53,941 nt of DNA from Pseudobdellovibrionaceae bacterium (GCA_041288045.1 JBGGMM010000068.1:1-53941), one strand, 5' to 3'. Shown: positions 5,162 to 33,689, numbered from the stretch's first letter. Notes: a model not told the origin generated them from the sequence alone. Numbers and translations are program-made.

Positions 5162-7018
5162 ATGGACCGGGTATTTAGTTTATTTCTTTTTGCGCTAGCA
5201 ATGCCATTTGCGACGCAGGCTCAGCAGGCGAATCAGCCGATGCGTCCGCTCGATGGAACAGCTTGGATCATGACCTTCGAAGACAATTTTAATGGAACAA
5301 CGCTGGATACAACGAAATGGACCGCAAGAAAACCAACAGCTTCTAGCCAGCGTTACCGTCCTGATTTTGTCAGCGTGAGCAATGGAAATCTCGTTCTTAA
5401 AATTGATCGCGATTCGACAAGTCCGAATGGTTATCGAGCGGCTGCGGTTGATACCACGAAGGGTCTTGGCAATATGGATAATAAATTTGATCAGCTCTAC
5501 GGCTTTTTTGAAGCCCGAGCCATGGTGCCGCCCACCAATCAAACCCTGTTTGCATTTTGGATGCACAATTGGCCAGGCATGGGCAATGTCGATGGAACAG
5601 GTCGTGATGGTACAGAGATTGATGTGGTTGAATCCGCGTATAGAAGTGATCTCACACAAAGCACTCTTCACATCGATGGTTATGGTGCCGACCATAAGGT
5701 CATTACCAACGGTCCTCAGCCAGCAACCAACATCCACGTGGGTTACCACGTTTATGGCGTTGAATGGGATCGGGATAATTTAAAATTTTATTACGATGGA
5801 AAATTAACTTGGCATTACCAAGGTGTCGCTGTTCCTTGGGTCAAAGAATTTATGCTTTTATCGACGGAAGCTTTGATTGGATTTGGTGAAGGCAATATCT
5901 CTCAAGCTCAACTTCCTTATTACGCCCATGTGGATTATGTCCGTGTTTGGAAAAAAGGGACATCCACATCTTCTGGGGGCTCGACTGGTGGCTCAACGAC
6001 AGCTGATGGTCAAACTTTTAAGCCCACGGATGATTCCTATGTGCGCGATGGTATTTATTCAGGCAATAACTTCGGCAGTGAAACAACGATGATGGTTAAA
6101 TCTGATGTGGCTAATAACAGCCGTCAGGCTTTTTTGAAATTCAATTTTGCAGGATACAAAGGATCGGTTCCTGCAAAACAGATTAAGCTTCGATTGTTCG
6201 TGAGCAATGTCAACATCGATCCAATAAGAACAATAAAGGTCTATGGGACCTATGAAAACTGGTCGCAATCAACGATCAATAGCAACAATGATCCAGCAAT
6301 CACAACCTTTCTGGGATCATTCAATGTGACTAATTCTATGGCTGGAAAGTGGGTTGAACTGGATGTCACAAATAGCGTCAACAGCCAGATGGGCGATAAG
6401 ATCATCTCTTTCAAACTTGTGAATGAAGGTGGGGCAAGTCTGACGAACAATGTCAGCTTTAATGCCAAAGAGGCTTCATCCAATCAGCCAGAATTAGTGA
6501 TTATCTCGAATCCACTCACTTTTATTGCCAGTGCTGATGCTTATGTCAGAAAGGGAATTTACGCGAATAACAATTACGGTGGCGAAGCCCTTTTGACAGT
6601 GAAGAGCAGTGCGAATCAGCCCAATGATTCATATAAATCTTATTTGCGATTCAATTATACAACTTACAGTGCACCCAGTATTTCATCTGCAAAATTGAAA
6701 TTAACTGTCTCAAGTGTGGGGACAGATGCAAGCCGTACACTAAGGGTTTACGGAGTCAAAAATGAAAGCTGGTCTGAGCTTGGGATCAATTGGAGCAATG
6801 CCCCACTGGATGCAACTTATCTAGGCTCCATCACGGTCAGTTCAGCGGCTGGAGCCAGTTACCAATTTGATGTCACAAACTACATCAAACAGCATACAGA
6901 CAAAATAGTGTCCTTTGCGATTACAAATGAAGGAGTGACAACATTGCAAAACATCGTGTCTTTCCATTCGAAGAATTCAAGCTCCAGCAGTAAACCGCAA
7001 TTGATCCTTGCTCCCTGA
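5162..7018 (+). CDS. Secreted GH16 glycoside hydrolase with two C-terminal DNRLRE/CBM96-like modules
   Basis: Signal peptide, FEDNFNG, YGFFEAR, catalytic EIDVVE, HVYGVEW, VDYVRVW, Ser/Gly/Thr linker. Two D[SA]YVR..G..NN[FY]G…[FY]L[KR]F…W.E..I.W…F..K….P.L modules. Confidence 0.85.
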   Translation: MDRVFSLFLFALAMPFATQAQQANQPMRPLDGTAWIMTFEDNFNGTTLDTTKWTARKPTASSQRYRPDFVSVSNGNLVLKIDRDSTSPNGYRAAAVDTTKGLGNMDNKFDQLYGFFEARAMVPPTNQTLFAFWMHNWPGMGNVDGTGRDGTEIDVVESAYRSDLTQSTLHIDGYGADHKVITNGPQPATNIHVGYHVYGVEWDRDNLKFYYDGKLTWHYQGVAVPWVKEFMLLSTEALIGFGEGNISQAQLPYYAHVDYVRVWKKGTSTSSGGSTGGSTTADGQTFKPTDDSYVRDGIYSGNNFGSETTMMVKSDVANNSRQAFLKFNFAGYKGSVPAKQIKLRLFVSNVNIDPIRTIKVYGTYENWSQSTINSNNDPAITTFLGSFNVTNSMAGKWVELDVTNSVNSQMGDKIISFKLVNEGGASLTNNVSFNAKEASSNQPELVIISNPLTFIASADAYVRKGIYANNNYGGEALLTVKSSANQPNDSYKSYLRFNYTTYSAPSISSAKLKLTVSSVGTDASRTLRVYGVKNESWSELGINWSNAPLDATYLGSITVSSAAGASYQFDVTNYIKQHTDKIVSFAITNEGVTTLQNIVSFHSKNSSSSSKPQLILAP

Positions 7019-11611: not shown

Positions 11612-12595
11612 TTAGGTTTTTGGATTCAAAAATTTTATCAAGGCTTCGAAACAGTGGGCGACTCCCTTATAAACTCTTGATTCGGGTGTCATGCTTTGAA
11701 GGGCTGAGCTTAATTGGGAGCGCATTTTTTCATCGGCTTTGATTTCGCTTCCGGGAATAAAGCTCAAACGAATTGTAAATAGCGAAGCTTGAATTTTGGG
11801 AAATCCAAAAGTCGTTTGTCTTTCGATCCGCAAATAGAAAGGTTCCTTCGCAGATTCGTCAAAGCTTCGGCCTTTCCATGAAAGCTCGTCTTCACCGGAA
11901 GGGGCGATGGGGTGGTGATTCAGTCGAGTGTCGGTCACAAAACTCCAGACAAAGCGTACGAAAGGACCCTTGGCTATCATAGCCTCAATCATGCTGTCAG
12001 CGACCTTGAGCATCCGATCGATTCCTGGAATCGGTTTATGAACGGCTGAAAAATTGAGGCCAATTTTGTCCTCAGCAGCCCAGTGACTGGGACTGCAAAG
12101 ATTCAAATAACTGAGCCAGTCTTTTTTGCTTTCCAAATCTCTTTGCACCAGGGCGATATCTTCAGGCACCTGGAGAAAAAGAGCGTCCAAGGCATTGAGT
12201 GGCTTTGGATTGACAGCTTCTGCTGAAGAGTAGAGCAGAAGCTCGCCCTCAGTGGAAAAAGTCATCTTGTCATTTGTGTGATTGGCTTTAAGTTCGATTT
12301 TACTTTCTGTTTTCTGCAATTGAAAAAGCTCTGGAGATTCTTTTTGAAATCGCTCGATCAAAAAAAGCACGATTTCTTTTTCGCTCTCTGCAGGCAGGTC
12401 CTGGGTCTGAATGTATTTGCTGAGGCGCTCTTTGCGACATTTCAATTTGTTCTCACGAAAGAGTGGGAATTCAGAATCAATCTGAAAAATCTTTTCATCA
12501 AAAGCGCCATTGCCAAAGGAAAAGCCCAAGGGCTTCAGTCCAGGAGCCACTTCATAAAGTCCGCGGTCGATAGGGAAATAACGGGGAGTCTTCAT
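11612..12595 (-). CDS. DUF3445 / heme-dependent oxidative N-demethylase alpha-subunit-like protein
   Basis: LQVPEDIALV, LCSPSHW..EDKIG..F..VHKPIPG, RFVWS, YLRIERQT…LFTIR motifs. Start 12595 or 12649. Confidence 0.75.
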   Translation of the reverse strand: MKTPRYFPIDRGLYEVAPGLKPLGFSFGNGAFDEKIFQIDSEFPLFRENKLKCRKERLSKYIQTQDLPAESEKEIVLFLIERFQKESPELFQLQKTESKIELKANHTNDKMTFSTEGELLLYSSAEAVNPKPLNALDALFLQVPEDIALVQRDLESKKDWLSYLNLCSPSHWAAEDKIGLNFSAVHKPIPGIDRMLKVADSMIEAMIAKGPFVRFVWSFVTDTRLNHHPIAPSGEDELSWKGRSFDESAKEPFYLRIERQTTFGFPKIQASLFTIRLSFIPGSEIKADEKMRSQLSSALQSMTPESRVYKGVAHCFEALIKFLNPKT

Positions 12596-12754
12596 GGACT
12601 TTAGGCTTTCGCACGCAGCAGAATTTGCGTCAACGAAATTTTCTTTCAAGACTTTGGATTTGAAAACCAGACCTTATTGGAAATCTGGACCTGAATATCA
12701 AGCTGAGGCGTCCGATGTAGTTTCTAAGAGAAAACCTCTCGAATGGAGTTTTTT

Positions 12755-14584
12755 GTGGCTTTTAATTATTCAAAACACAAAAATTCAGGTGATGGACACG
12801 GATCCGTTTGGACCTCATATTCAGATCTCTTTCTGGGTCTTTCGGTTATTTTCCTTCTCCTGTATGTGACCGCAAGTCTTCGTCAGGGAACCAACGGGTT
12901 TCAAACCCAGCGATTGGCCCTTGAGAACACGGATCTGAAAAAACAGCTCCAAGCTTATCAAGCAATGACTGACGATTATCTGAAGAAAAAGGCAACTGAA
13001 CAAGAAGCAGACAATTATCAAGAGCTCATGGACCAGCTGGATCTTTTGCAAGATAAGGCTGATGAAGAAAAACGGGAGCTTCGCAAGCAAGCTCAGGAGC
13101 ATGAGAAAAAAGAACGGGCGCTGAATAAGTACCAGCAAATGATTCGAAATATCATCAATGCCAACATGGTTTCTAAGGCCGGGATCAAAAAGCGTGACGT
13201 CGAAATTGAGAGCCAGGATCAGCAAATCGCCAGCAATGAAGAAGAGATCCAGACGCTGGAGCAGTCGGTGGCTGAAAAGAAAGCTCAGCTGACTTTGAAT
13301 GACAGAAAGATCAAGGACCTGAATGCCAACTTGGACACTCGCATGAAGCAGTTGAGATCGTCTTACAAGTTGCAGAAAATTTCGCAGAGCAAATTTGAAC
13401 AGCAGAAAAAGGCAATCGAGGCTGAGACTCAGCGTAAAGTTGCGGCACTTCGTGCTCAGAACCAAACTGTTTCTCAACAGCTCAATGAAGTGAACGAGCA
13501 ATTGAATCAAACCAATGCTCAATTGGCTCAAACAGAACAAAAAGCCGCTCAATTGGGACAGAAAGCAGATCAGTTGGGTCAGGACGTCAATCGTTTAGGC
13601 CAAGAGAAAATGGCATTGAAAGGCCAGTTCGAGAATGAAAAAGCCGCAATGAAAGGCGACTTTGAAAACGAGAAATCGGCTCTCAAAGGTCAGTTTGAAA
13701 ATGAAAAGTTAGCTTTAAAAGGCAAATACGATCAAGACAAAGCTTACTTGCAAGGCAAACTCGCTCAAGAGCGAGCTGCTTTTGAAGGACAAAAAGCCAA
13801 GCTTCAAGGCGATTACGATACCCAACGAGCACGTGACAAAGCCGCTTTTGACGCTGCATTGGCAAAAGAGAAACTCACGGGTGCGCAACGTGCAGCTCGA
13901 GAAGCTGCCTTTAAAGCCGATGCCGATCGGAAAGCCAGAGCTTTGGGTGATCAACTCTCTCACCTTCAAGGAAAAATGCGTGATACAGAAGGAGCTTTGG
14001 CAAAAGCGCAAGAAAATCTCAATGCCAAGAAAAAGATCACCGAGCAAATCAAGCGCAATTTTGCTTCAGCTGGTGTGAAAGCCGACGTGGATGAAGCCAC
14101 TGGTGACGTGATTCTATCCTTCGGAAACCAGTATTTCGACACGGACCGATCGGATCTGAAACCTGGAATGGTGAACATCATTCGTCAGGCGATGCCTCAG
14201 TACTCAAAGAGTCTTTTTGAGGATCCTAAGATCGCTAACAAAATTCAAAACGTCGAAATCGTCGGGTTTGCGTCTCCCACTTACCAGGGCAAGTACATTG
14301 ATCCGAAGAGTTTGGATCCAGCCGATCGTCAGGCGATCAATTACAATCTGGATTTAAGTTATGCGCGAGCCAAATCCATTTTCAATGTGGTTTTTGACCA
14401 GAAGAAAATGACATTTGAACATCAAAGGAAACTTTTGCCACTGGTGAAAGTGACAGGGCGAAGCTTTTTCTCGAATCCGGATGACCAGCGCGGGGTCGCC
14501 AGTGATTCAAGCAAATCTTTTTGCGAGAAGAACGACTGCGCCAAGCTTCAAAGAGTTATTATTAAGTTTAATTTAAAAGATTAA
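12755..14584 (+). CDS. MotB/ZorB-like protein: TM with conserved Asp, long coiled coil, C-terminal OmpA-like peptidoglycan-binding domain
   Basis: WTSYSDLFLGLSVIFLLLYV TM, ~380 aa coiled coil, FDTDRSDL…VEIVGFAS…NLDLSYARAKSI…RVIIK. GGAG SD precedes GTG 12755. Confidence 0.8.
   Translation: MAFNYSKHKNSGDGHGSVWTSYSDLFLGLSVIFLLLYVTASLRQGTNGFQTQRLALENTDLKKQLQAYQAMTDDYLKKKATEQEADNYQELMDQLDLLQDKADEEKRELRKQAQEHEKKERALNKYQQMIRNIINANMVSKAGIKKRDVEIESQDQQIASNEEEIQTLEQSVAEKKAQLTLNDRKIKDLNANLDTRMKQLRSSYKLQKISQSKFEQQKKAIEAETQRKVAALRAQNQTVSQQLNEVNEQLNQTNAQLAQTEQKAAQLGQKADQLGQDVNRLGQEKMALKGQFENEKAAMKGDFENEKSALKGQFENEKLALKGKYDQDKAYLQGKLAQERAAFEGQKAKLQGDYDTQRARDKAAFDAALAKEKLTGAQRAAREAAFKADADRKARALGDQLSHLQGKMRDTEGALAKAQENLNAKKKITEQIKRNFASAGVKADVDEATGDVILSFGNQYFDTDRSDLKPGMVNIIRQAMPQYSKSLFEDPKIANKIQNVEIVGFASPTYQGKYIDPKSLDPADRQAINYNLDLSYARAKSIFNVVFDQKKMTFEHQRKLLPLVKVTGRSFFSNPDDQRGVASDSSKSFCEKNDCAKLQRVIIKFNLKD
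13604..13768 (+). repeat. 5 x 33-nt (11-aa, hendecad) intragenic repeat
   Basis: EKMALKGQFEN/EKAAMKGDFEN/EKSALKGQFEN/EKLALKGKYDQ/DKAYLQGKLAQ. Confidence 0.8.
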
Positions 14585-14594
14585 GAGGTGAAAT

Positions 14595-15548
14595 ATGGAT
14601 TTAAATTTGATGATCCACAATCTGATTGAAGGGATCGTGCACTATTCGAAAATTTTGCACTTTCCCATCATGGTTGGGGCCTTTATCGTCGGGGTGGCAT
14701 TGCGCTTTCTCGTTTTCTACACGGTAAAAAGGCATGATTGGTTCGCCATGGAATTTGAAAAGCGGGTCAGTCGCTTTCTCGATAAAGAGGCCAAGGGTGT
14801 CACCGAAACGCACTCGTTCTATGTTTTGGTGAAACGACTCATGGAAAAAACGTTTTTCGAAGTTTTTGAAAACCGCGAAAAACTCAAGCGTCGAAGACCA
14901 GACCGCGTGATGCTGATGAGTGATCGCTGGTTCTTGATCAAGGCAGGCGTGGCTTGGATGATCCACGATATTCTCAAGCAGATCCGCTTTCTGAAATACG
15001 GATCGCAACCTCCGAAGCTTGTGAACATCACCAAGAACACATTTGCCAAAAATCCATGCTTCAACCGAGTGTTCGGGATCATTCCAACTGTCGGAACGAA
15101 CGAAGTCTTGAACGTTCTGCCAAGCCTTTTTGTCATCGTCGGGATCTTTGGAACTTTCTTAGGTGTTATGAAGGGTCTTCCCGAGCTGAGCAAAATGGAT
15201 GTTCAAAATGCAGAAGCAACAAAAACAGTCATGGACACTTTCTTGATGGAAATCGCTCTTTCTATGGGAGCTTCGATTTTGGGGATTTTCTTCTCAGTTT
15301 TGATGACAATCGTGAACACGATTTTCAATCCAGACCGTCTGTTTGTCGAAATCGTCGATCGCTTCGAAAATTCATTGGATCTTTTGTGGAACAGAGCCCA
15401 CACCAACGAAGTTCCGCCGAATTTGGCTGAATTCAACGAACACCGCGATCCACTCGAGGCCTTGGCTGAGAACGCCTTGCAAGCTGAAATCATGAAACGG
15501 CCTTTTGACCGCAACAGTGGGAACGAGCCGCCTTCAAAAGCAGGCTAA
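14595..15548 (+). CDS. MotA/TolQ/ExbB/ZorA-like proton-channel subunit
   Basis: N-terminal TM, cytoplasmic loop, then LPSLFVIVGIFGTFLGVMKGL and IALSMGASILGIFFSV TM pair (GxxGTxxG signature). GAGG SD. Confidence 0.75.
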   Translation: MDLNLMIHNLIEGIVHYSKILHFPIMVGAFIVGVALRFLVFYTVKRHDWFAMEFEKRVSRFLDKEAKGVTETHSFYVLVKRLMEKTFFEVFENREKLKRRRPDRVMLMSDRWFLIKAGVAWMIHDILKQIRFLKYGSQPPKLVNITKNTFAKNPCFNRVFGIIPTVGTNEVLNVLPSLFVIVGIFGTFLGVMKGLPELSKMDVQNAEATKTVMDTFLMEIALSMGASILGIFFSVLMTIVNTIFNPDRLFVEIVDRFENSLDLLWNRAHTNEVPPNLAEFNEHRDPLEALAENALQAEIMKRPFDRNSGNEPPSKAG

Positions 15549-15569
15549 ATTGACCGCGAGAGGGAGCTA

Positions 15570-18191
15570 ATGGCAAAAAAGTTTTTGCCCCTCATTCGAA
15601 TATTCACTCCGAACGATTCCCGGTGCCATTTGGTTGACCGGGAAAAGTTCGTTATTGGCAGATCGCCCGGTGTTGAGATTTTGCTCACCACGGGATCCAT
15701 CAGCCGAAAGCATCTTTCTGTTGAAATCAAAGGACAGGAGATTTTGATTGAGGATCTGGGGTCTGCCAATGGATCCTTTTTGTCTGATATGCGCCTTGAG
15801 CCTGGCAAAAAATATCCACTACCGGCCAGGACTCCAGTTCGTCTCGGAAATTCTGGCGAAACCATCACGGTAGAGCTCATGGACCGCCCCGTTGAGTTCG
15901 GGGATTACAAAAACTTTCTCTCTGATTTCAATCGTGACCTGCAAAATGTCATGGCCGAACTGATCCTTGAAGGCCGAGAAAAAGCCAATTTGATTATCAA
16001 AGAAGCGCAAGTGCAAGTGGCGAATGCCATCACTTCATCGCAAGCTCAAGCACAAGGAATTCTCCAGCAAGCCAAAGCTCAGGCTGACAGCTCGCTCGAA
16101 GCTGCCAATGTGAAAAGCCATCAGATTGTCAAAGAGGCCGAAGAGAAAGCGGAAGAAGTCTCTGATCGCGCCAAGCGCAATGCCATTGAAGAAGCACACG
16201 CTCTGAAAGAAAAAATCAAAGCTGATTCCGAAGCTGAAATCAAAGAAAAAGTTGAAAAAGCCAAAGCCGAGGCCGAGAAAATCCACCGCGAAGCCATTTA
16301 CCGAGCCCAAGAAAACGCCCAGACGGAACTTGAGCAGCTTCGACAGAAAGCCCATCACGACATCGAAATGAAACGCCAAGAAGAAACATCGGCGCTCAAA
16401 GAGCAACTGGCAAAAATGAAGCTCGACCATCAGGTCGAAGCCGATCAGACACTGCAAAATGCTCACAAAGAAGCTCAGAGAATCAAAGAAACAGCTGTCC
16501 AAGAAGCTGAAAAAATAAAATCAGACGCGCAAGCCTTCAGTCAAAAATTGCATCTCGACACTGAGGCCGAAGTCAAAAAACAGCTGCAGCAGACAAGAGA
16601 AGCGGCTGAAAAAATCAGACAAAGTGCCCAGCAGGATTTTGATGAGACAGTGGCTCGTGGCCAAAGCAAAGGACAGGATCTTTTGCATCAAGCTGAAACG
16701 GAAGCGGCCATGATCATTGAGAAAGCCCGTGCCAAAGCGGCGCAAATCGTCGAAAACCAAGAGCAAGAATCCCATTTATTTTTGAAAAATCTGAAAGCTG
16801 CGATTGAATCCGAAGCTAAAATCGAAGCGCAGCGAATTTTGAAATCCACTGAGGATCAAGTCGCTCACCAAAGAGCCGAAGCTCAAAAAGAAGTCGATTC
16901 GGCCAAAGCCACAAAAGCTCTTCTCGAATCCGACATCAGCCAGTTGACCAAAGCTTCAGGCCAACTTTTGGATGAAAAAGGACGGCTGCAAGAAGATTTA
17001 AAGAAAATCCAAAGTGATCTGGTGGCACTGCGAGAGGAAACTTCAAGACAGCATGATCTGAATGCCAAATTGGTCGAACTTGAAAAAGAGCTTCAGGCGC
17101 TTGAACTGAAGCGAGCGCAAATTCAAGAAAGAAATCGGCGAAGTGAAGAAGAATTGGACCTGCTCAAGCGCAGCACACTTTCCGAACTGGATCGAATTCG
17201 TCGCGCTGAAGAAGTTAAAATCTTGCAGATGGCCAGTCTCAAAGCCAAAGATTTCTCAACTCGGATTGAAAGCTTGGTGATTCACGGTCTCAATGAAAAA
17301 TTAGATGTGAAGCTGACTCCGGCCCAAGCCAATGAGCTCTGCCATCAAATTTTCGAAGAGCTGAACACTTTGTTTGCCTCTGAAGCTTTCAAGCATGACG
17401 AGAAAGTCTCAATGGCAAAACAGGGTGAAGTTCCAACCCCATCCTTTTTCAAAAACAAAGCCTTTCGCTGGGGTGTCGCCGCGGCGGCTGTAGCTGGCGT
17501 GGTTTTCCTTGCCAAGAATTCAAAGCAGTTGGTGCAAATGCAAGATCAATTGACAGAAAAATTGATCGTTAAACAAAGAGACGATGCGACTTACAAACCG
17601 GCCATGACGCCAGAGTACCGGCAGACTTACACAGATAATATTTTGTACATGGAAAAGTACTTAGCCCTCAAGAACGACGAGAAAGTGCAAGAGCAGTGGG
17701 CTCTGAACTTAAGTGATTTCTTCTTTAAAGATTTGAGATTGAACGAAGAGGTCATGGTTCGATTTATCGGGCTTGAGTCGGCTTTGATCAAACGTCTTTC
17801 TGGTTTCCGAGATTCAGTCGATCTTCGCTATCTTGAAGAAGGCATCATGCGAATGCGAGAAGCCGAGCGAGAAGAAGTGGCAAAAATCCACCAGCTCCTG
17901 AATGGTCCTGTGAACTATGAAAAACTGCGAGTCAGAGAGAAAATCTTCTTAGCGCAAATGAGTGCCCTGCAGATGCGTCAGCCTTCGCAAGCTTTCGATA
18001 CAAACCCTTCAGCGTCCGCGCCACCACCCGAGGTCAGAGAAATCTCATCGACGCCAGAGACGCCAGCTTCTTTTGCTGAGCCAGAAGCGTCAACAAGTCG
18101 AGAGGCCTCCAAGGCCCGACGCCGGCCGACCACTTCCAGCAAACAGATCCCCCGTAAGCTGCCAGCGAAGAAAACAAGATCTCGAAATTAA
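15570..18191 (+). CDS. FHA-domain, long coiled-coil, single-TM protein
   Basis: FHA motifs IGRS…ISRKH…EDLGSANGSF, ~500 aa Ala/Glu/Lys/Gln coiled coil, TM WGVAAAAVAGVVFLA, helical C-terminal domain and Pro/Ser-rich tail. Confidence 0.85.
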   Translation: MAKKFLPLIRIFTPNDSRCHLVDREKFVIGRSPGVEILLTTGSISRKHLSVEIKGQEILIEDLGSANGSFLSDMRLEPGKKYPLPARTPVRLGNSGETITVELMDRPVEFGDYKNFLSDFNRDLQNVMAELILEGREKANLIIKEAQVQVANAITSSQAQAQGILQQAKAQADSSLEAANVKSHQIVKEAEEKAEEVSDRAKRNAIEEAHALKEKIKADSEAEIKEKVEKAKAEAEKIHREAIYRAQENAQTELEQLRQKAHHDIEMKRQEETSALKEQLAKMKLDHQVEADQTLQNAHKEAQRIKETAVQEAEKIKSDAQAFSQKLHLDTEAEVKKQLQQTREAAEKIRQSAQQDFDETVARGQSKGQDLLHQAETEAAMIIEKARAKAAQIVENQEQESHLFLKNLKAAIESEAKIEAQRILKSTEDQVAHQRAEAQKEVDSAKATKALLESDISQLTKASGQLLDEKGRLQEDLKKIQSDLVALREETSRQHDLNAKLVELEKELQALELKRAQIQERNRRSEEELDLLKRSTLSELDRIRRAEEVKILQMASLKAKDFSTRIESLVIHGLNEKLDVKLTPAQANELCHQIFEELNTLFASEAFKHDEKVSMAKQGEVPTPSFFKNKAFRWGVAAAAVAGVVFLAKNSKQLVQMQDQLTEKLIVKQRDDATYKPAMTPEYRQTYTDNILYMEKYLALKNDEKVQEQWALNLSDFFFKDLRLNEEVMVRFIGLESALIKRLSGFRDSVDLRYLEEGIMRMREAEREEVAKIHQLLNGPVNYEKLRVREKIFLAQMSALQMRQPSQAFDTNPSASAPPPEVREISSTPETPASFAEPEASTSREASKARRRPTTSSKQIPRKLPAKKTRSRN

Positions 18192-19255
18192 AAAAAGCTC
18201 ATTTGATCTCCGGGTCTTGCAAAAGACTCGGCGGAAAGTTTGACTTCAGATTGATTCAGGCTCCATTTTTGTGTGTAAATGCGAAACATCTGCTGCAGAT
18301 TCTGAGCAATGGGGCCGGCCCCCCGCATTCGCGAACCAAATTCAGAGTCATTTAATTTTCCTCCTCGCAGATCGCGAATCAAGGAAAGGACTTTTTCTTT
18401 CTTGTCAGGGCGGTGGACTTCTAGCCATTCGCTAAAAAGCGGGCTGACCGCTAAGGGGAGTCTTAAGGGAGTATAACCCGCAAATTGCGCTCCAGCGTCT
18501 CTGGCCGCTTTTAAAATGGACGGCAGTTCATGATCGGTCAGTCCTGGGATCACCGGTGCCACATTCACCCCGACAGGAATCCCGGCTTGCGCCAGCTTTT
18601 CAATGGTCTGCAGACGGGCCTGGGGCCTTGACGTCCTGGGCTCAAGATCACCGCAAAGATCGGCATCCAAAGTCGTGACTGAAATAAACACCAAAGCTCC
18701 TTGAAACTGAGCGAATTCTTTCAACAAATCCAAATCCCGTGTGACCAGCTGATTTTTGGTGATGATTCCCACAGGGTTTTTAAATTCAAGCAGAACTTGC
18801 AAGCAGCGACGAGTGAGCTCCAGTTTTCTTTCGATCGGTTGGTAGCAGTCGGTGACTCCGCTGAGAAAAATCGCTTCGGGTTCATAGCTTTTCTTCATCA
18901 AAGCTTCATGCAAGAGTTCGGGAGCACTTTCTTTGACCATAATGATGGATTCAAAATCAAGGCCTGGAGAAAACCCCAGATACTCATGGGTGGGACGGGC
19001 GTAGCAATAAGCACATCCATGCTCACAGCCCCGATAGGGGTTCACAGAAAGGCGAAAGCCGATATCGGGGCTTTGGTTTTCGGTCAGAATGCTTTGCGAA
19101 GAATCTTTCAGGAAACGAGTTCGAAGCAGTGGTTTTTCATCCTCACAAAAGGCTTCCCAATCTTGGAGTTCCAGCTCCACATGGCTTTTTTCAAAGCGGT
19201 TGTGCTGCTGACTGCTGGCCCCGCGTCCTGTGATGTTTTTTCTGAATTCTTTCAC
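18188..19255 (-). CDS. PA0069/Rv2578c-family radical SAM protein (SPL-like)
   Basis: SVNPYRGCEHGCAYCYARPTHEYLG, TDCYQPIE, LEPRTS.P..R, GSRMRG. Confidence 0.9.
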   Translation of the reverse strand: MKEFRKNITGRGASSQQHNRFEKSHVELELQDWEAFCEDEKPLLRTRFLKDSSQSILTENQSPDIGFRLSVNPYRGCEHGCAYCYARPTHEYLGFSPGLDFESIIMVKESAPELLHEALMKKSYEPEAIFLSGVTDCYQPIERKLELTRRCLQVLLEFKNPVGIITKNQLVTRDLDLLKEFAQFQGALVFISVTTLDADLCGDLEPRTSRPQARLQTIEKLAQAGIPVGVNVAPVIPGLTDHELPSILKAARDAGAQFAGYTPLRLPLAVSPLFSEWLEVHRPDKKEKVLSLIRDLRGGKLNDSEFGSRMRGAGPIAQNLQQMFRIYTQKWSLNQSEVKLSAESFARPGDQMSFF

Positions 19256-29556: not shown

Positions 29557-30198
29557 ATGAAAAAAATTGTGATGTTCGTAGGCGCCCTCTGTTCTTTGGT
29601 TTCCTTTTCCGCCAATGCAAAAGACGTGAGTCTGAGCGAAGCTCGGGCCATCTTTCAGGAATGGGCAAAGGGCAATCAAAAAGACTTTGGCCCCAACTGC
29701 AAATACGTCAACTGGATTGCTCAAGAATCAGTGAAGCAAAATCCTCGACTAAAGAATTTGTCAGCTCAGGAAAAGCAGGCTTGTGTGGCGCTGGTGAAAT
29801 CCACCACAGGAGCTTACTGCCGATACCAATTGAAAGTCGTTGAAAGCGCTTTGACCTCCCTCAGTCAGGAAAATGTCAAAGATGTGTCTTCTCGTTTGGA
29901 ATCCGCTTCGCCAGAATTTATCGGTCGGGGACTGTTGATGAGTTTACGACGTGATTTCCAACGAAGCGAAATCTTCTCCACCAGTGCCATTCAAGAAGCT
30001 GTGAAATCATCCAGCTGTGAAGCTCTGAAAGGAAATGTTGAAAAACTGCAAGCCCGAATGGAAGAAGAGAATTCTCAAATTCGTAAGGCCATGGAAGAAG
30101 ACAGTTTGATTGCAGTTGAAACTCTTGAATCTAAAGTTTCAAGTTCATCTTCAACAGCGACTTCATCTTCAAGCACGGCTTCTGATGGCGCCCAGTAA
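29557..30198 (+). CDS. Secreted helical hypothetical protein, first gene of the Fic operon
   Basis: AAGGAG SD, signal peptide to ANA-K, four Cys in the mature part, Ser-rich tail ending DGAQ. Stop overlaps the next ATG (TAATG). Confidence 0.8.
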   Translation: MKKIVMFVGALCSLVSFSANAKDVSLSEARAIFQEWAKGNQKDFGPNCKYVNWIAQESVKQNPRLKNLSAQEKQACVALVKSTTGAYCRYQLKVVESALTSLSQENVKDVSSRLESASPEFIGRGLLMSLRRDFQRSEIFSTSAIQEAVKSSSCEALKGNVEKLQARMEEENSQIRKAMEEDSLIAVETLESKVSSSSSTATSSSSTASDGAQ

Positions 30199-31937
30199 TG
30201 ATCCGATCTGGCCTGCTTCTTAGTCTTTTGTTTTTCACTGTCAGCCTGGCTGAAGCTCAGCCGGGCCTGTTGTGCAGGCAAATTCACCAAAAGTCTGCAA
30301 CCCCAAGCGACTTCATTTTAGATCCCCAAAAATTAGAGAAAGAGGGCTTTCGAATCACCAAAGAAGGCTCTCTTTTCGACACTCGACAAAATATCATTTT
30401 AGGCTACGTCAGCAAACGAGACTTCCCTTACCTTTACGAATGGGCCGATTTGGAATTTCAAAAGCTCTGGGTGCAAAATGGTGGGCTTTCCAAAGAAGAT
30501 ATGGACCAATACATCCGGGATGAAGCCCAAGCTTATGGCCGTGGGTATTATGTCTCGACTCATCCCACGGACAGCATTGACTATGGGAATGCTGTCACAG
30601 TGTTTAAGCCGGCAGGGACGATGACTGTTCTGGGATTTACTTCGATTCTCAATTCTTTGGGAACTGTCTTTTTCCAGCGTCTCCAGCGAGTAGGAGTCGA
30701 TGCGATTCAAGGGACTAACACCTGGTTTTCAATTATTAATGACAAGCATTTAAAAGTGGCGCAAGGGGAGATTCAAGATCCACAACTGGCCGCCGTGCAG
30801 TCGCCCAAAGCCATCGGTCGCTTTCTTATTTCAGGATTGATAACCCAGCTCCCCAAGGACCATCCCCTTCGCCAGATGACTGCTCAACTGACAGAAGAGG
30901 GAGTTCAAAAAGCACTCAATCACGATGACCCCAGTGAAATTCAAAAGCTGACCCAATTTGAAGATTGGATTCAAAGACCAGAAATTCAAAAATATTTCAA
31001 TCCAACGCTTGGATTTTCCCTGCATTCGATTTTTTCCTATTTTGACATTGTCACGACCTTGCAGGTTTTGAAAAAAGGCCCAGCCGAAGTCAAGGACTTG
31101 AAAGCCATTTCAGATTCGACTCGAAAACTGGTGAGCAACCGAAAGAAAATCAATTTGAACAAGGTCAAAGACTTTCGAGATTTTGCCCAATTGGCTGACA
31201 TCTACACAGGGCAAAAAACGAGTCTTCGCGGTCGCGCTTTGAAGGTGTCAACCCAAGGGATTGCAGATCTGCCAGGTCATTTTTATGAACTTTTTCTTCA
31301 GCTCCAACGAAACCAACTCGTGAGTATGAATCGCAATGGCTCGCCCGGGCGGGTTCAAATTGAATTATTGAATTTGCAAAAGATCTATCAATTTTATATT
31401 GGTTTTCTTTCGCCGGGTTTGCGTCAAAGGTTGGAGCAATTGGCTCAGCAGCAAGACCTCTCCCATTCAGATCTTTACCGCTTGAAAGAAGCGCAAGTGC
31501 TTTTGCAAGAGTCCTTGGCAGAGATTACAAACCTTCTTTTTACTGGAACTCCAGAGCAGCTCCGAAGTTTCCTGACCCGAGCATTCTCGTTGAACATCAA
31601 TGTTGAAGATATCAATCCCTACCTTTTGTACAGAGCCTTTATGTCCATTCAGCCCTTCGCAAATGACAATGGTCCCATGGGGCAACTGTATTTTGAGTGG
31701 TTGCAGCGAAAATCCAAAAATTCAAACTCAGTGATTGAATTGGCTGATTTCAATATATTTCTTTTCATGAATTCAGCAGAACTAGAAAAATTGCATATGG
31801 CCACCCGGATCTTCAACGCCTGGATCTCAAGAGCAAAAAATCAAGCCGAACTTTTAGATCGCTTGGAAAAGGCCAAAGCCCAATTGTCACAACAGTTCCC
31901 CAGTCTGAGGGATTACTGGAAAGTACAGGGTGATTAG
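30198..31937 (+). CDS. Secreted ART-like + degenerate Fic-domain protein (pseudo-Fic paralog)
   Basis: Signal peptide, YGRGYYVSTHPTDS..YG. Fic position reads QPFANDNGPMGQ (His and both Arg lost). Full-length paralog of the next gene. Confidence 0.75.
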   Translation: MIRSGLLLSLLFFTVSLAEAQPGLLCRQIHQKSATPSDFILDPQKLEKEGFRITKEGSLFDTRQNIILGYVSKRDFPYLYEWADLEFQKLWVQNGGLSKEDMDQYIRDEAQAYGRGYYVSTHPTDSIDYGNAVTVFKPAGTMTVLGFTSILNSLGTVFFQRLQRVGVDAIQGTNTWFSIINDKHLKVAQGEIQDPQLAAVQSPKAIGRFLISGLITQLPKDHPLRQMTAQLTEEGVQKALNHDDPSEIQKLTQFEDWIQRPEIQKYFNPTLGFSLHSIFSYFDIVTTLQVLKKGPAEVKDLKAISDSTRKLVSNRKKINLNKVKDFRDFAQLADIYTGQKTSLRGRALKVSTQGIADLPGHFYELFLQLQRNQLVSMNRNGSPGRVQIELLNLQKIYQFYIGFLSPGLRQRLEQLAQQQDLSHSDLYRLKEAQVLLQESLAEITNLLFTGTPEQLRSFLTRAFSLNINVEDINPYLLYRAFMSIQPFANDNGPMGQLYFEWLQRKSKNSNSVIELADFNIFLFMNSAELEKLHMATRIFNAWISRAKNQAELLDRLEKAKAQLSQQFPSLRDYWKVQGD

Positions 31938-33689
31938 GTGACTCGATCTTGGCTGCTTCTCAGTCTTGTGTCGTTGGCTGTCAGCCTGTCTGAAGCTCAG
32001 TCGGCTTCGCTCTGCCGTCAGGTTCATCAGAAAGCCACAGCGAAAAGCAGCGGCGCACTTTTGGATGCAAAAAAATTGGCGCAAGAGGGATTTCTTATCA
32101 CCGATGGGGGAGATCTCTATGATACTCGGCTGAACCGAAAAATGGGCTCTATCCGCAGACTGAATGTTCCCAATCTCTATGAATGGGCACAGCCGCCCCT
32201 CCAAAAAATTTGGGTTCAAAACGGAGGTCTTTCGAAAACGGATTTAGATGCTTATATCGACGGCAAGGGGCAAAATTTTGGGCGCGGATATTATGTCTCG
32301 ACCCATCCGACAGACAGTATGAGCTATGGCGATGCCGTGACCATATTTAAACCTTCGGGTCCTATGACTGCTCTGGTCTACACTCAAGATCTCTATAAGG
32401 CCGACGCCATTTTTTACCGACGTCTTCAACGAGCCGGCCTAGATGCCATTCTCATTGGTGAAACTTGGCTTGCGGTGATCAACTCTCGACATTTGAAAGT
32501 CGAGAGGGGTGAGATCCAGGATCCTCAACTGAATGATTTAAATTCTCTGGGATTTATCGTGCGTTTGCAGAAATCAGGATTTGCAGAGCACCTCTCTGCA
32601 GGCAATCCAAATCGCCTGCTCGCCGAGCAAATGACAGGAGAGGGGCTCAAGCAGGCCTTAGCCAGTGAGGATCCCACGTTCCTACAAAAAATTTCAGAAG
32701 TCGATAGCTGGATCGATAAGCCCCAGGTTCAAAAAATTTTCAGTCCAACCGAAGAGTTCTCTTTGCGTTCCATTTTTCCCTACTTTGATATCGCCACGAC
32801 TTTGCAAGTTTTGAAAAAGGGAACCCCTGAGCTCAAGAATCTGAAATCCGTTTCAGACTTCACTCAGTTGATGATGAAGAATCGCGCCAAAATTGATTTG
32901 CACAAAGTGAGAAATTTTAAAGAATTTGCCAAATTGGCTGTGGATTACACCGGACAAAAAAGTGAAATTCGTGATTATGCTGTGATGATGTCTTCTGTTA
33001 CCGCCAAAGGAGATAATGGGATCGCGAATCCTCCCGACAAGTTTTATAAAAACATCAGAAGAAACATTCTTTTATCGATCACCCCTAGCTCGCCGGGTCG
33101 AATCCATGTCGAGTATCTCAGTCTGCCGAAAATTCAAAAGAACTTTTCGCAGTTTCTTTCAACGTCTCTGCAAAAAAGACTTTCAAAGTTGGCAGAAGAT
33201 TATGATCTCGAGCACCCAGGGCTTTACCGTTTAAAAGAAGCTCAAATTCTTTTGCAAGAATCCTTAACCGAATTGACCGACATTCTCTTCACAGGCACTC
33301 CAGAACAACAGGCGACCTTTCTTGGAAGAGCTCTGGCCATCCCGGCTTCTCCTCAGTTCTTCACTCCCTACCATTACTACCAAGCCTTTATGGCCATTCA
33401 TCCACTGACAGACGCCAACGGCCGCATGGGACGCCTGTTCTTTGAATGGCTCCATCGCAATTCGAAAGGTCCACTTTCAGTTTTAGAGCTCGCTGACTTC
33501 GATATGGATGTGTTCATGCCAGCGGAGAATTTGAAGCAACTTCACATCACCACCCGAGTTCTGAATACTTGGATCGCAAGATCCCAAGACCAAAAAGAGC
33601 TTCAGGCTCGCTTGGAGCAATCAAAAGCGTACCTCGCAAATCGGTTCATAGAGATGGGTCAATACTGGAAAGCTGAAGGCTACAAATGA
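31938..33689 (+). CDS. Secreted ART-like + Fic-domain protein
   Basis: GTG start abutting the previous TAG, signal peptide, FGRGYYVSTHPTDS..YG, Fic motif HPLTDANGRMGR. Confidence 0.8.
   Translation: MTRSWLLLSLVSLAVSLSEAQSASLCRQVHQKATAKSSGALLDAKKLAQEGFLITDGGDLYDTRLNRKMGSIRRLNVPNLYEWAQPPLQKIWVQNGGLSKTDLDAYIDGKGQNFGRGYYVSTHPTDSMSYGDAVTIFKPSGPMTALVYTQDLYKADAIFYRRLQRAGLDAILIGETWLAVINSRHLKVERGEIQDPQLNDLNSLGFIVRLQKSGFAEHLSAGNPNRLLAEQMTGEGLKQALASEDPTFLQKISEVDSWIDKPQVQKIFSPTEEFSLRSIFPYFDIATTLQVLKKGTPELKNLKSVSDFTQLMMKNRAKIDLHKVRNFKEFAKLAVDYTGQKSEIRDYAVMMSSVTAKGDNGIANPPDKFYKNIRRNILLSITPSSPGRIHVEYLSLPKIQKNFSQFLSTSLQKRLSKLAEDYDLEHPGLYRLKEAQILLQESLTELTDILFTGTPEQQATFLGRALAIPASPQFFTPYHYYQAFMAIHPLTDANGRMGRLFFEWLHRNSKGPLSVLELADFDMDVFMPAENLKQLHITTRVLNTWIARSQDQKELQARLEQSKAYLANRFIEMGQYWKAEGYK

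Follow-up and report, generated by a model that had tools for sequence, protein, structure and literature searches.

Ion-driven motors of the 5:2 type are known to power the flagellum, gliding, type IX secretion, the transfer of energy by TonB and Tol, and defence by Zorya. A stretch of 53,941 nucleotides from a Pseudobdellovibrionaceae bacterium (GCA_041288045.1, JBGGMM010000068.1:1-53941; hereafter, the window) carries, at positions 12,755 to 18,191, three same-strand genes encoding a MotB-like protein (B), a MotA-like protein (A) and a protein with an FHA domain (F), and raises the question of which of these machines the operon resembles and what it could do in a predatory lineage. Orthologues in the same order were found by cluster look-up in Bdellovibrio bacteriovorus HD100 (CAE79080-82, Bd1167-Bd1168-Bd1169), where Bd1167 is annotated as a 'microtubule binding protein', Bd1168 as 'hypothetical/uncharacterized' (with a MotA/TolQ/ExbB domain in UniRef) and Bd1169 as a 'large Ala/Glu-rich protein'.

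The initial annotation, made from the sequence alone, read the operon as a MotA/MotB-like motor of a distinct, non-flagellar kind. The ion-motor pair stands, but by profile comparison, fold and phylogenetic tree it is closer to ZorA/ZorB than to MotAB, ExbBD or TolQR. It is a real and conserved ion motor variant of the ZorAB lineage, presumably of the 5:2 type, lying outside Zorya proper, and apparently undescribed. Its third gene is swappable between signal readers, either an FHA-rod-membrane protein or a lone cyclic-nucleotide-binding (cNMP) domain. The explanation that we favour, still tentatively, is a proton motor gated by a signal, with which the predator would put its own envelope under tension or remodel it in the attack phase.

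Kinship of the Motor Subunits with ZorA and ZorB

The A protein matched the NCBIfam ZorA model with an E-value of 3.5e-11 and the PADLOC ZorA1 model with 1.3e-9, while Pfam MotA_ExbB gave 7e-4; Pfam PF28082 (ZorA-like_t1) is precomputed on this protein. A sequence search of the PDB at E<0.01 returned ZorA chains only. ZorA also occupied ranks 1-4 in Foldseek, at E-values of 0.004-0.006 that are not significant alone, and VIA aligned A to 8qyh with a Z-score of 11.8 (root-mean-square deviation 4.3, 213 residues), compared with 10.1 for ExbB, in a range that this tool treats as inconclusive for helical proteins. Residues 420-585 of B matched PADLOC ZorB1 with E 3.6e-28, and the top two matches in a PDB sequence search were ZorB chains; a single-sequence PDB search with the C-terminal domain of B gave no match. 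The best match for the motor pair in the ESM Atlas was likewise Zorya. The scores of A and B fall below the curated NCBIfam cut-offs for ZorA and ZorB (at best 42.8 bits versus 100, and 22.5 versus 400).

A tree was built from the core between transmembrane (TM) helices 2 and 3 (76 rows, 133 columns). A split with support of 100/97 places the motor family and ZorA on one side and 32 Mot/Exb/Tol/Agl-type rows on the other, and 38 of the 39 rows of the motor family group together (97/90). ZorA is represented by five sequences of the phylum only, all on long branches, since a plasmid search with the ZorA of locus L156 gave no match; the designation 'sister' to ZorA is therefore provisional. One pair left out of the tree, because it lacks the motif (L243:1312-2872, genome G199), consists of a tail-less ZorA-like protein (287 aa) followed by a ZorB-like protein (231 aa) in A-B order; zorC and zorD were not seen in this 3.6-kb locus, which represents another non-canonical ZorAB pair.

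The residues expected along an ion path are retained. The A protein has three TM helices and the GIFGTFLG motif noted initially, and its P176, I184, T187 and S227, equivalent to P136, I144, T147 and S184 of EcZorA, are invariant (36/36). The TM aspartate of B (SYSDLF) is invariant in all 60 homologues and aligns to D26 of EcZorB, and the Y-N-x2-L-x3-R motif in its OmpA-like domain aligns, with the same spacing, to Y151/N152/L155/R159 of EcZorB. These are the residues that matter according to Hu et al. (PMC11946911). Strict conservation of the TM aspartate and of the Thr/Ser filter in both clades of the family indicates selection on ion-coupled function, and leaves little probability to a mainly structural periskeleton or tether with incidental ion flow, in line with the older naming of Bd1167 as a crescentin-like coiled-coil protein (Lambert 2010, PMC2797640).

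The absence of a tail sets A apart. It reaches only about 50 aa past W265, and its relatives measure 292-328 aa among the matches listed (n=120, in a search restricted to 174-555 aa); the tails of longer, distant homologues are of low complexity. The tail of Zorya ZorA, about 70 nm long, is found in all types and is required for defence (PMC11946911).

Architecture of the Operon and Its Products

The tight spacing and B-A order of the genes described in the initial annotation were recovered, with intergenic gaps of 10 and 21 bp, and hydropathy predicts a single TM helix each for B and F and three for A (Table 1). The GTG at 12755, the start of B in the initial annotation, aligns with the M-x-F-N-Y N-terminus of the homologues.

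Table 1. Coordinates of the operon and of the features of its products in the window.
Feature	Position	Strand	Remarks
B subunit, ZorB-like; HD100 orthologue Bd1167	12755..14584	+	GTG start; frame open from ATG 12743
B TM helix, W-T-S-Y-S-D-L-F	12806..12877	+	Predicted ion-binding Asp, codon 12824-12826; aligns to EcZorB 'FWISYAD26L'
B periplasmic proline-free coiled coil	12890..14017	+	Conserved neck (~residues 60-170), then length-variable rope
33-bp (11-residue) tandem repeat, 2.9 copies, in the variable part of the B rope	13613..13707	+	
B OmpA-like wall-binding domain	14030..14581	+	G-F-A-S-P-T-Y, Y-N-x2-L-S-x2-R, C-x4-C pair
A subunit, ZorA clade, 317 aa; HD100 orthologue Bd1168	14595..15548	+	
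F protein, 873 aa, FHA-rod-TM-periplasmic domain; HD100 orthologue Bd1169	15570..18191	+	
F FHA domain, canonical (G30 R31 S45 R46 H48 D62 S65 N67 G68)	15651..15848	+	Residues 28-93, Pfam E 4e-12
F cytoplasmic helical rod	15957..17369	+	Period ~3.68 in first half
F TM helix, residues 630-648	17457..17513	+	Basic residues before; sequence not conserved
F C-terminal all-helical domain	17517..17978	+	Confident structure model; family marker

The TM helix and the OmpA-like domain of B are separated by about 388 aa, or ~57 nm if straight, and residues 50-430 are free of proline; the proposed long periplasmic tether is borne out by this spacer. In homologues the spacer ranges from 253 to 1502 aa, and a rope length varying between ~250 and 1500 aa is what would be expected of a tether, not of a ruler. 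One B protein of 1758 aa (L123:8436-13712) has a rope that would exceed 200 nm if straight. The rods of both B and F match SMC/Rad50 and Scy/DivIVA/FliH-type profiles. Their helical periodicity per segment is marginal, the same level being reached by 10-103 of 300 shuffles, so that the label 'coiled coil' relies mainly on the profile matches and the lack of proline.

The layout of F proposed initially, with a cytoplasmic FHA domain, a long rod, a TM helix and a periplasmic domain, was also found. Eight of the residues that read phosphothreonine are present in 62 of 62 homologues and N67 in 59 of 62, and Hanks kinases occur in all five genomes tested. No claim is made for a GarA-like self-Thr site following the FHA domain, since no more than 29 of 62 homologues showed one and none was noticed in the F protein of the window. 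The rod is proline-free over residues 130-540. Searches with the C-terminal domain gave no clear structural match in the PDB or the Atlas (best Foldseek E 0.69; best VIA Z 7.3, mostly over the N-terminal helices; Atlas TM-score at most 0.39). The comparison of F with the gliding transducer GltG did not hold: this domain is modelled as all-helical, and F has no match to the NCBIfam AgmX/PglI C-terminal model at E<=1. Shorter stand-alone F paralogues of ~550 aa, with the FHA and the same C-terminal domain, occur at L276:4903-6528 and L277:4605-6263, with no motor genes nearby.

Distribution and the Two Kinds of Third Gene

Conservation was assessed in 200 loci (80 from genomes, 40 hand-picked and 80 from metagenomes), which are best hits, include many kin and some duplicates, and contain two ZorA-type outgroups. 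Named relatives are essentially all Bdellovibrionota, and no relative of A was found in viral contigs. A was detected in 129 of 301 genomes of the phylum and in 34 of 39 genomes of the host family, a few of the matches being weak. B lies directly upstream of A in all 176 loci with room for it, the contig ending there in 22 of 198. The gene after A is F in 109 of the 198 loci, a cNMP-binding protein in 62, another gene in 17 (two of them with an inverted cNMP gene) and the contig end in 10; in the first 80 loci from genomes, 78 could be assessed and all 78 have F after A, which answers the question of synteny in favour of a conserved FHA gene. The C-terminal domain of F occurs in 92 of 301 genomes, of which 89 have A. 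Two of the three others belong to a genus with the shorter stand-alone F-like gene (seen in G312 and G123), and the third is a weak match. F is likewise missing from all five host-family genomes that have no A; B is absent from four of them, and the fifth retains a fragment of it where a contig ends. In genome G210, B-A and F lie 0.9 Mb apart (L274, L275) and F appears 5'-truncated, pointing to a rearrangement breakpoint or a misassembly.

The A proteins of the cNMP-type loci form a clade of their own (14 of 14 rows, 100/99). The ropes of the B proteins in this clade measure 266-1502 aa and lack the conserved neck, and the third protein, of 150 aa, consists of the cNMP-binding domain alone; all nine tested scored above the Pfam cut-off, and the GE motif is present in 60 of 63. 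Of the initial idea of a phospho-regulated transducer, the phosphothreonine-reading FHA domain and the Hanks kinases speak for the regulation, while, given the replacement of F by a lone cNMP domain in the sister clade, the third gene looks like an input for regulation and not like a force transducer that the motor always needs. That both partners read cytoplasmic signals is our main reason for regarding the third gene as a clutch or brake. After one B-A pair a receiver-domain protein was observed (L118:6998-7537), possibly a third kind of reader, in a single case. The copies in Bacteriovoracaceae (L068, L073, L096 and L098) look Bdellovibrio-like, and the A protein of L098 nests within Pseudobdellovibrionaceae (100/100), which suggests that they were acquired by transfer; at these four loci a second FHA-coiled-coil-TM gene adjoins the cassette on the opposite strand.

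The kinship with ZorAB invites another explanation, a Zorya-like envelope alarm with a detached tail: upon damage by phage, prey defences or osmotic shock, B would grip the wall, the A ring would turn and F would relay the event inward and recruit phospho-proteins, or effectors whose genes lie elsewhere. ZorA/ZorB are the best match in NCBIfam, PADLOC, PDB sequence, Foldseek, VIA and ESM Atlas searches, and the tree places ZorA on the same side of its main split. The F rod of the homologues (median 512 aa from FHA to TM, ~75 nm if straight) matches the ZorA tail in length (PMC11946911), the cNMP proteins match the cNMP part of Pycsar/CBASS effector models, and dispensability without phage, together with loss of the whole cassette from some complete genomes, would fit conditional defence. 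The genomic context is difficult to reconcile with this explanation. A PADLOC search at 1e-10 covered the proteins around 33 FHA-type loci (123 proteins) and 15 cNMP-type loci (79 proteins). No Zor model was found among these 202, whereas all of ZorA, B, C and D were recognised in the control locus L156; the 8 and 7 matches obtained were all generic (subtilase, helicase, methylase, nuclease, PLD, Fic). The cassette is about 20-fold commoner than true Zorya, whose ZorA occurs in 6 of 301 genomes, the viral contigs yielded none, and the cNMP clade has no rod at all. Expression restricted to the attack phase and FliA-type promoters (see below) are also unlike a constitutive island system. We consider the envelope alarm unlikely, and its anti-phage version taken alone, the ordinary form of the defence role proposed initially, rather improbable. 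The loci have no defence context, and the flanking genes differ from genus to genus. The control itself (L156:7492-14806) contains all four genes of a type I Zorya (zorA, B, C, D) and comes from genome G044, which measures 1.8 Mb, belongs to the same order and lacks FliM.

A flagellar role was rejected, the cassette being intact in two genomes without FliM, G039 (on one contig) and G245, in agreement with the non-flagellar assignment. Both genomes keep a full-scoring FliA, which fits a role of FliA as a general attack-phase sigma factor.

Expression in Model Predators

Bd1167-1169 form a three-gene operon with one attack-phase start site (Karunker 2013, PMC3627812), and their values, in reads per kilobase per million, are 932, 1354 and 527 in the attack phase versus 35, 23 and 14 in the growth phase (PMC3627812). 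FliA governs most attack-phase promoters according to the same paper. In our set, FliA-type promoters were found upstream of 9 of 88 FHA-type and 13 of 30 cNMP-type loci, compared with 0.6 and 0.2 in shuffles and 0 and 1 on the opposite strand; these loci include kin and are not independent. At prey entry, values of 0.58-0.64-fold were reported for B and A and of about 0.8 for F (Lambert 2010, PMC2797640). The three proteins were detected with 41, 16 and 52 peptides, with a minimum at 3-4 h and restoration at 6-7 h (PMC12546842), and in these data their levels co-vary (r 0.84-0.94).

The operon is not described as a motor in the literature found, which excludes subscription papers, so that an earlier remark on Bd1167, including one on a shape phenotype, is possible. 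Bd1167-1169 have no entries in two supplements of PMC11025332, and the passages available from PMC11656739, bioRxiv 2025.02.19.638989 and PMC3818213 deal with other subjects than this locus.

Proposed Function and Alternatives

What the data show are the ion-path residues, the wall-binding motif, the operon with its conservation, attack-phase expression of the HD100 orthologues and the exchange of the third gene between two signal readers. On this basis, the following mechanism could be proposed. By homology to ZorAB, A and B would assemble 5:2, with the B dimer anchoring its rope of 40-70 nm by the far end in the predator's own peptidoglycan. In E. coli, membrane and wall are about 9 nm apart (PMC11946911); a rope longer than this gap must run along the periplasm or fold. 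The third protein would act on A as a clutch or anchor, and would hold or release the A ring when a cyclic nucleotide or a phospho-Thr protein is present as ligand. Proton flow would then turn B against A, twist the rope and pull the inner membrane against the wall, so that a small, non-growing hunting cell could tension or reshape its envelope under mechanical or osmotic stress.

The C-terminus of A may add a means of disposal. It ends in a basic-x-Ala/Ser/Gly pattern in 101 of 120 A proteins (the matches listed) versus 36 of 2223 open reading frames of the host genome, a pattern defined after inspection of the data, and in 128 of 195 proteins of the locus set. This end resembles ClpXP degrons, and might serve as a degradation tag removing the motor after prey entry. 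The same motif was observed at the end of 51 of 63 cNMP partners (e.g., L121:8165-8617), of a true ZorA from the same order (L156:7492-9393), and of a MotA-like, a PilT-like (named by eye) and one ExbB/TolQ-like protein of the host genome (G000 C64:37519-38385, C240:3565-4638 and C100:11852-12568); possibly, it is a lineage-wide degradation tag for attack-phase machines.

Several observations weigh against an envelope-tensioning motor. Every B homologue with the OmpA GH[TA]D motif carries Ser in place of its acidic residue, and wall binding by B may therefore differ; type II ZorB (8vvi) likewise has GHTS. The TM and juxtamembrane sequence of F is poorly conserved. At 15 of the 198 loci neither reader adjoins B-A, and in five genomes of this kind the F domain is absent altogether. 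Whether signals would pass into the motor or out of it is read from the domain types. The promoter of the HD100 operon was scored as non-FliA (PMC3627812), and co-varying protein levels would be expected of any attack-phase genes. Finally, insertions in the orthologues of strain 109J (EP01_RS15535-45, assigned by annotation and gene order) gave fitness values W of 1.5-2.0 in planktonic and biofilm predation on V. cholerae and E. coli (Duncan 2019, PMC6561027), equal to the local median of 1.81 for 44 neighbouring genes. A value of ~1.8 was accordingly rejected as a fitness gain. In the published data, Bd1167-1169 are dispensable in pooled laboratory predation, and neutral insertions in all three 109J orthologues make any role of the motor conditional.

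The same data bear on prey invasion and gliding, two roles suggested initially, both of which are weakened by the absence of a fitness loss on either prey in pooled Tn-seq. If the motor instead generated force as the predator enters or leaves its prey, with other machines able to stand in for it, this would account for proteins that are high before entry and again before exit (PMC12546842), for conservation across predators and for an entry force of unexplained source (bioRxiv 2022.06.13.496000). However, insertion mutants were neutral in all four predation conditions, the cassette has been lost from complete genomes of the host family, and the wall-binding domain would lie in the predator's own periplasm with no outer-membrane partner linked; we regard this explanation as very improbable.

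A supporting role in moving over surfaces or scouting for prey (through gliding, pili or the positioning of adhesins), in which F would be a transducer like GltG, is rather improbable. The differences between F and GltG described above, the grouping of A apart from AglR/TolQ/ExbB, the lack of conserved glt genes near the cassette and the retention of gliding-type genes in two genomes without it (G080 and G178) outweigh the FHA-rod-TM layout of F, membership in the attack-phase regulon and persistence in genomes that have no FliM but still carry pilus and gliding-type genes. Moreover, no fitness loss was seen on biofilm prey, while gliding mutants in the same study were attachment-defective (PMC6561027).

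It is possible, but doubtful, that a tail-less, rope-bearing sister lineage of the Zorya motor acts as a winch on the cell's own wall, gated by a second messenger or by phosphorylation. If true, 5:2 motors would have a function not seen before, and ZorAB would seem to be either the descendant or the ancestor of an envelope machine with housekeeping duties. The combination of one motor with two different signal readers across the predator phylum suggests direct control of torque by second messengers or kinases. The model predator HD100 carries this motor, highly transcribed in the attack phase and tolerant of insertions, hidden under the name 'microtubule binding protein'.

Genomic Neighbourhood of the Operon

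Profile annotation of the window identified argS, an HODM-like gene, a radical-SAM gene and a histidine kinase gene as neighbours of the operon, and, in agreement with the initial annotation, no flagellar, tonB, tolA or zor genes among them. The GC profile has no island signature at the locus, and the flanks are housekeeping genes. The HODM-like gene (11612-12649) is divergent from B, with a short gap between them, and the radical-SAM (spore photoproduct lyase-like) gene (18188-19255) is convergent with F, overlapping it by 4 bp; the two do not recur as a neighbour cluster in related loci. No sigma-70 promoter or terminator was found at 12500-12800, and a FliA-like site of the window itself, TGAA-N15-TCCGATGT near 12712, is degenerate and is not claimed as a promoter. 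Elsewhere, the window encodes a protein with a GH16 and two CBM96 domains (5162-7018) and, at 30198-33689, two abutting open reading frames of ~580 aa that have no family assignment; a weak Fic motif is present in the second.

Comparison with Known Ion-Driven Motors

With flagellar MotA5B2 the motor shares the TM aspartate, an OmpA-like anchor on a linker and, possibly, a signal-reading regulator of A. Flagellar stators have brakes or clutches of the reader type, such as YcgR, MotI and FlgZ. The A protein differs in having three TM helices, not four, and in its separate clade on the tree; MotB_plug scored 13 bits on B, versus a cut-off of 24, and the host genome has its own separate MotA-like gene. 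A four-TM A subunit, a plug in B and co-occurrence with the flagellum characterise flagellar MotAB in a stator survey from which ZorAB was excluded (bioRxiv 2024.07.22.604496).

ExbBD-TonB, TolQR-TolA and AglRQS-GltG share a three-TM A subunit (in the second tier of Foldseek and VIA matches) and a third protein with a single TM helix. Their A subunits lie across the 100/97 split, and the C-terminus of B is OmpA/ZorB-like, not of the ExbD/TolR type. Compared with TonB, TolA and GltG, F lacks both a conserved TM motif and an AgmX/TonB_C-like domain; GltG-type proteins end in AgmX/PglI (TonB_C-like), whereas the end of F is modelled as all-helical. In GldLM/PorLM, a long periplasmic arm on the dimeric subunit is a driven shaft, which provides a precedent for the rope of B; the motor searches gave no sequence or fold match to these proteins, and there is no type IX secretion context.

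The closest comparison is with Zorya ZorA5B2 (E. coli type I, 8QYD; Shewanella, 8VVN; Sulfuricurvum, 8VVI). The gene order is B-A rather than zorA-zorB followed by effector genes, ZorC/D/E/F/G are not nearby, and the third gene is an FHA or cNMP reader. A lacks the long tail of the ZorA type, and 250-1500 aa separate the TM helix of B from the wall-binding domain that in ZorB is fused to it. The motor family is common and attack-phase specific, Zorya sporadic. Shared by both are a three-TM A subunit with the Thr/Ser filter, the Pro kink and the Ile, and a B subunit with the TM motif and its Asp, the YNxxLxxxR wall-binding motif and the cysteine pair. As the nearest non-defence-looking relative of ZorAB found here, the motor family bears on the origin of the Zorya motor.

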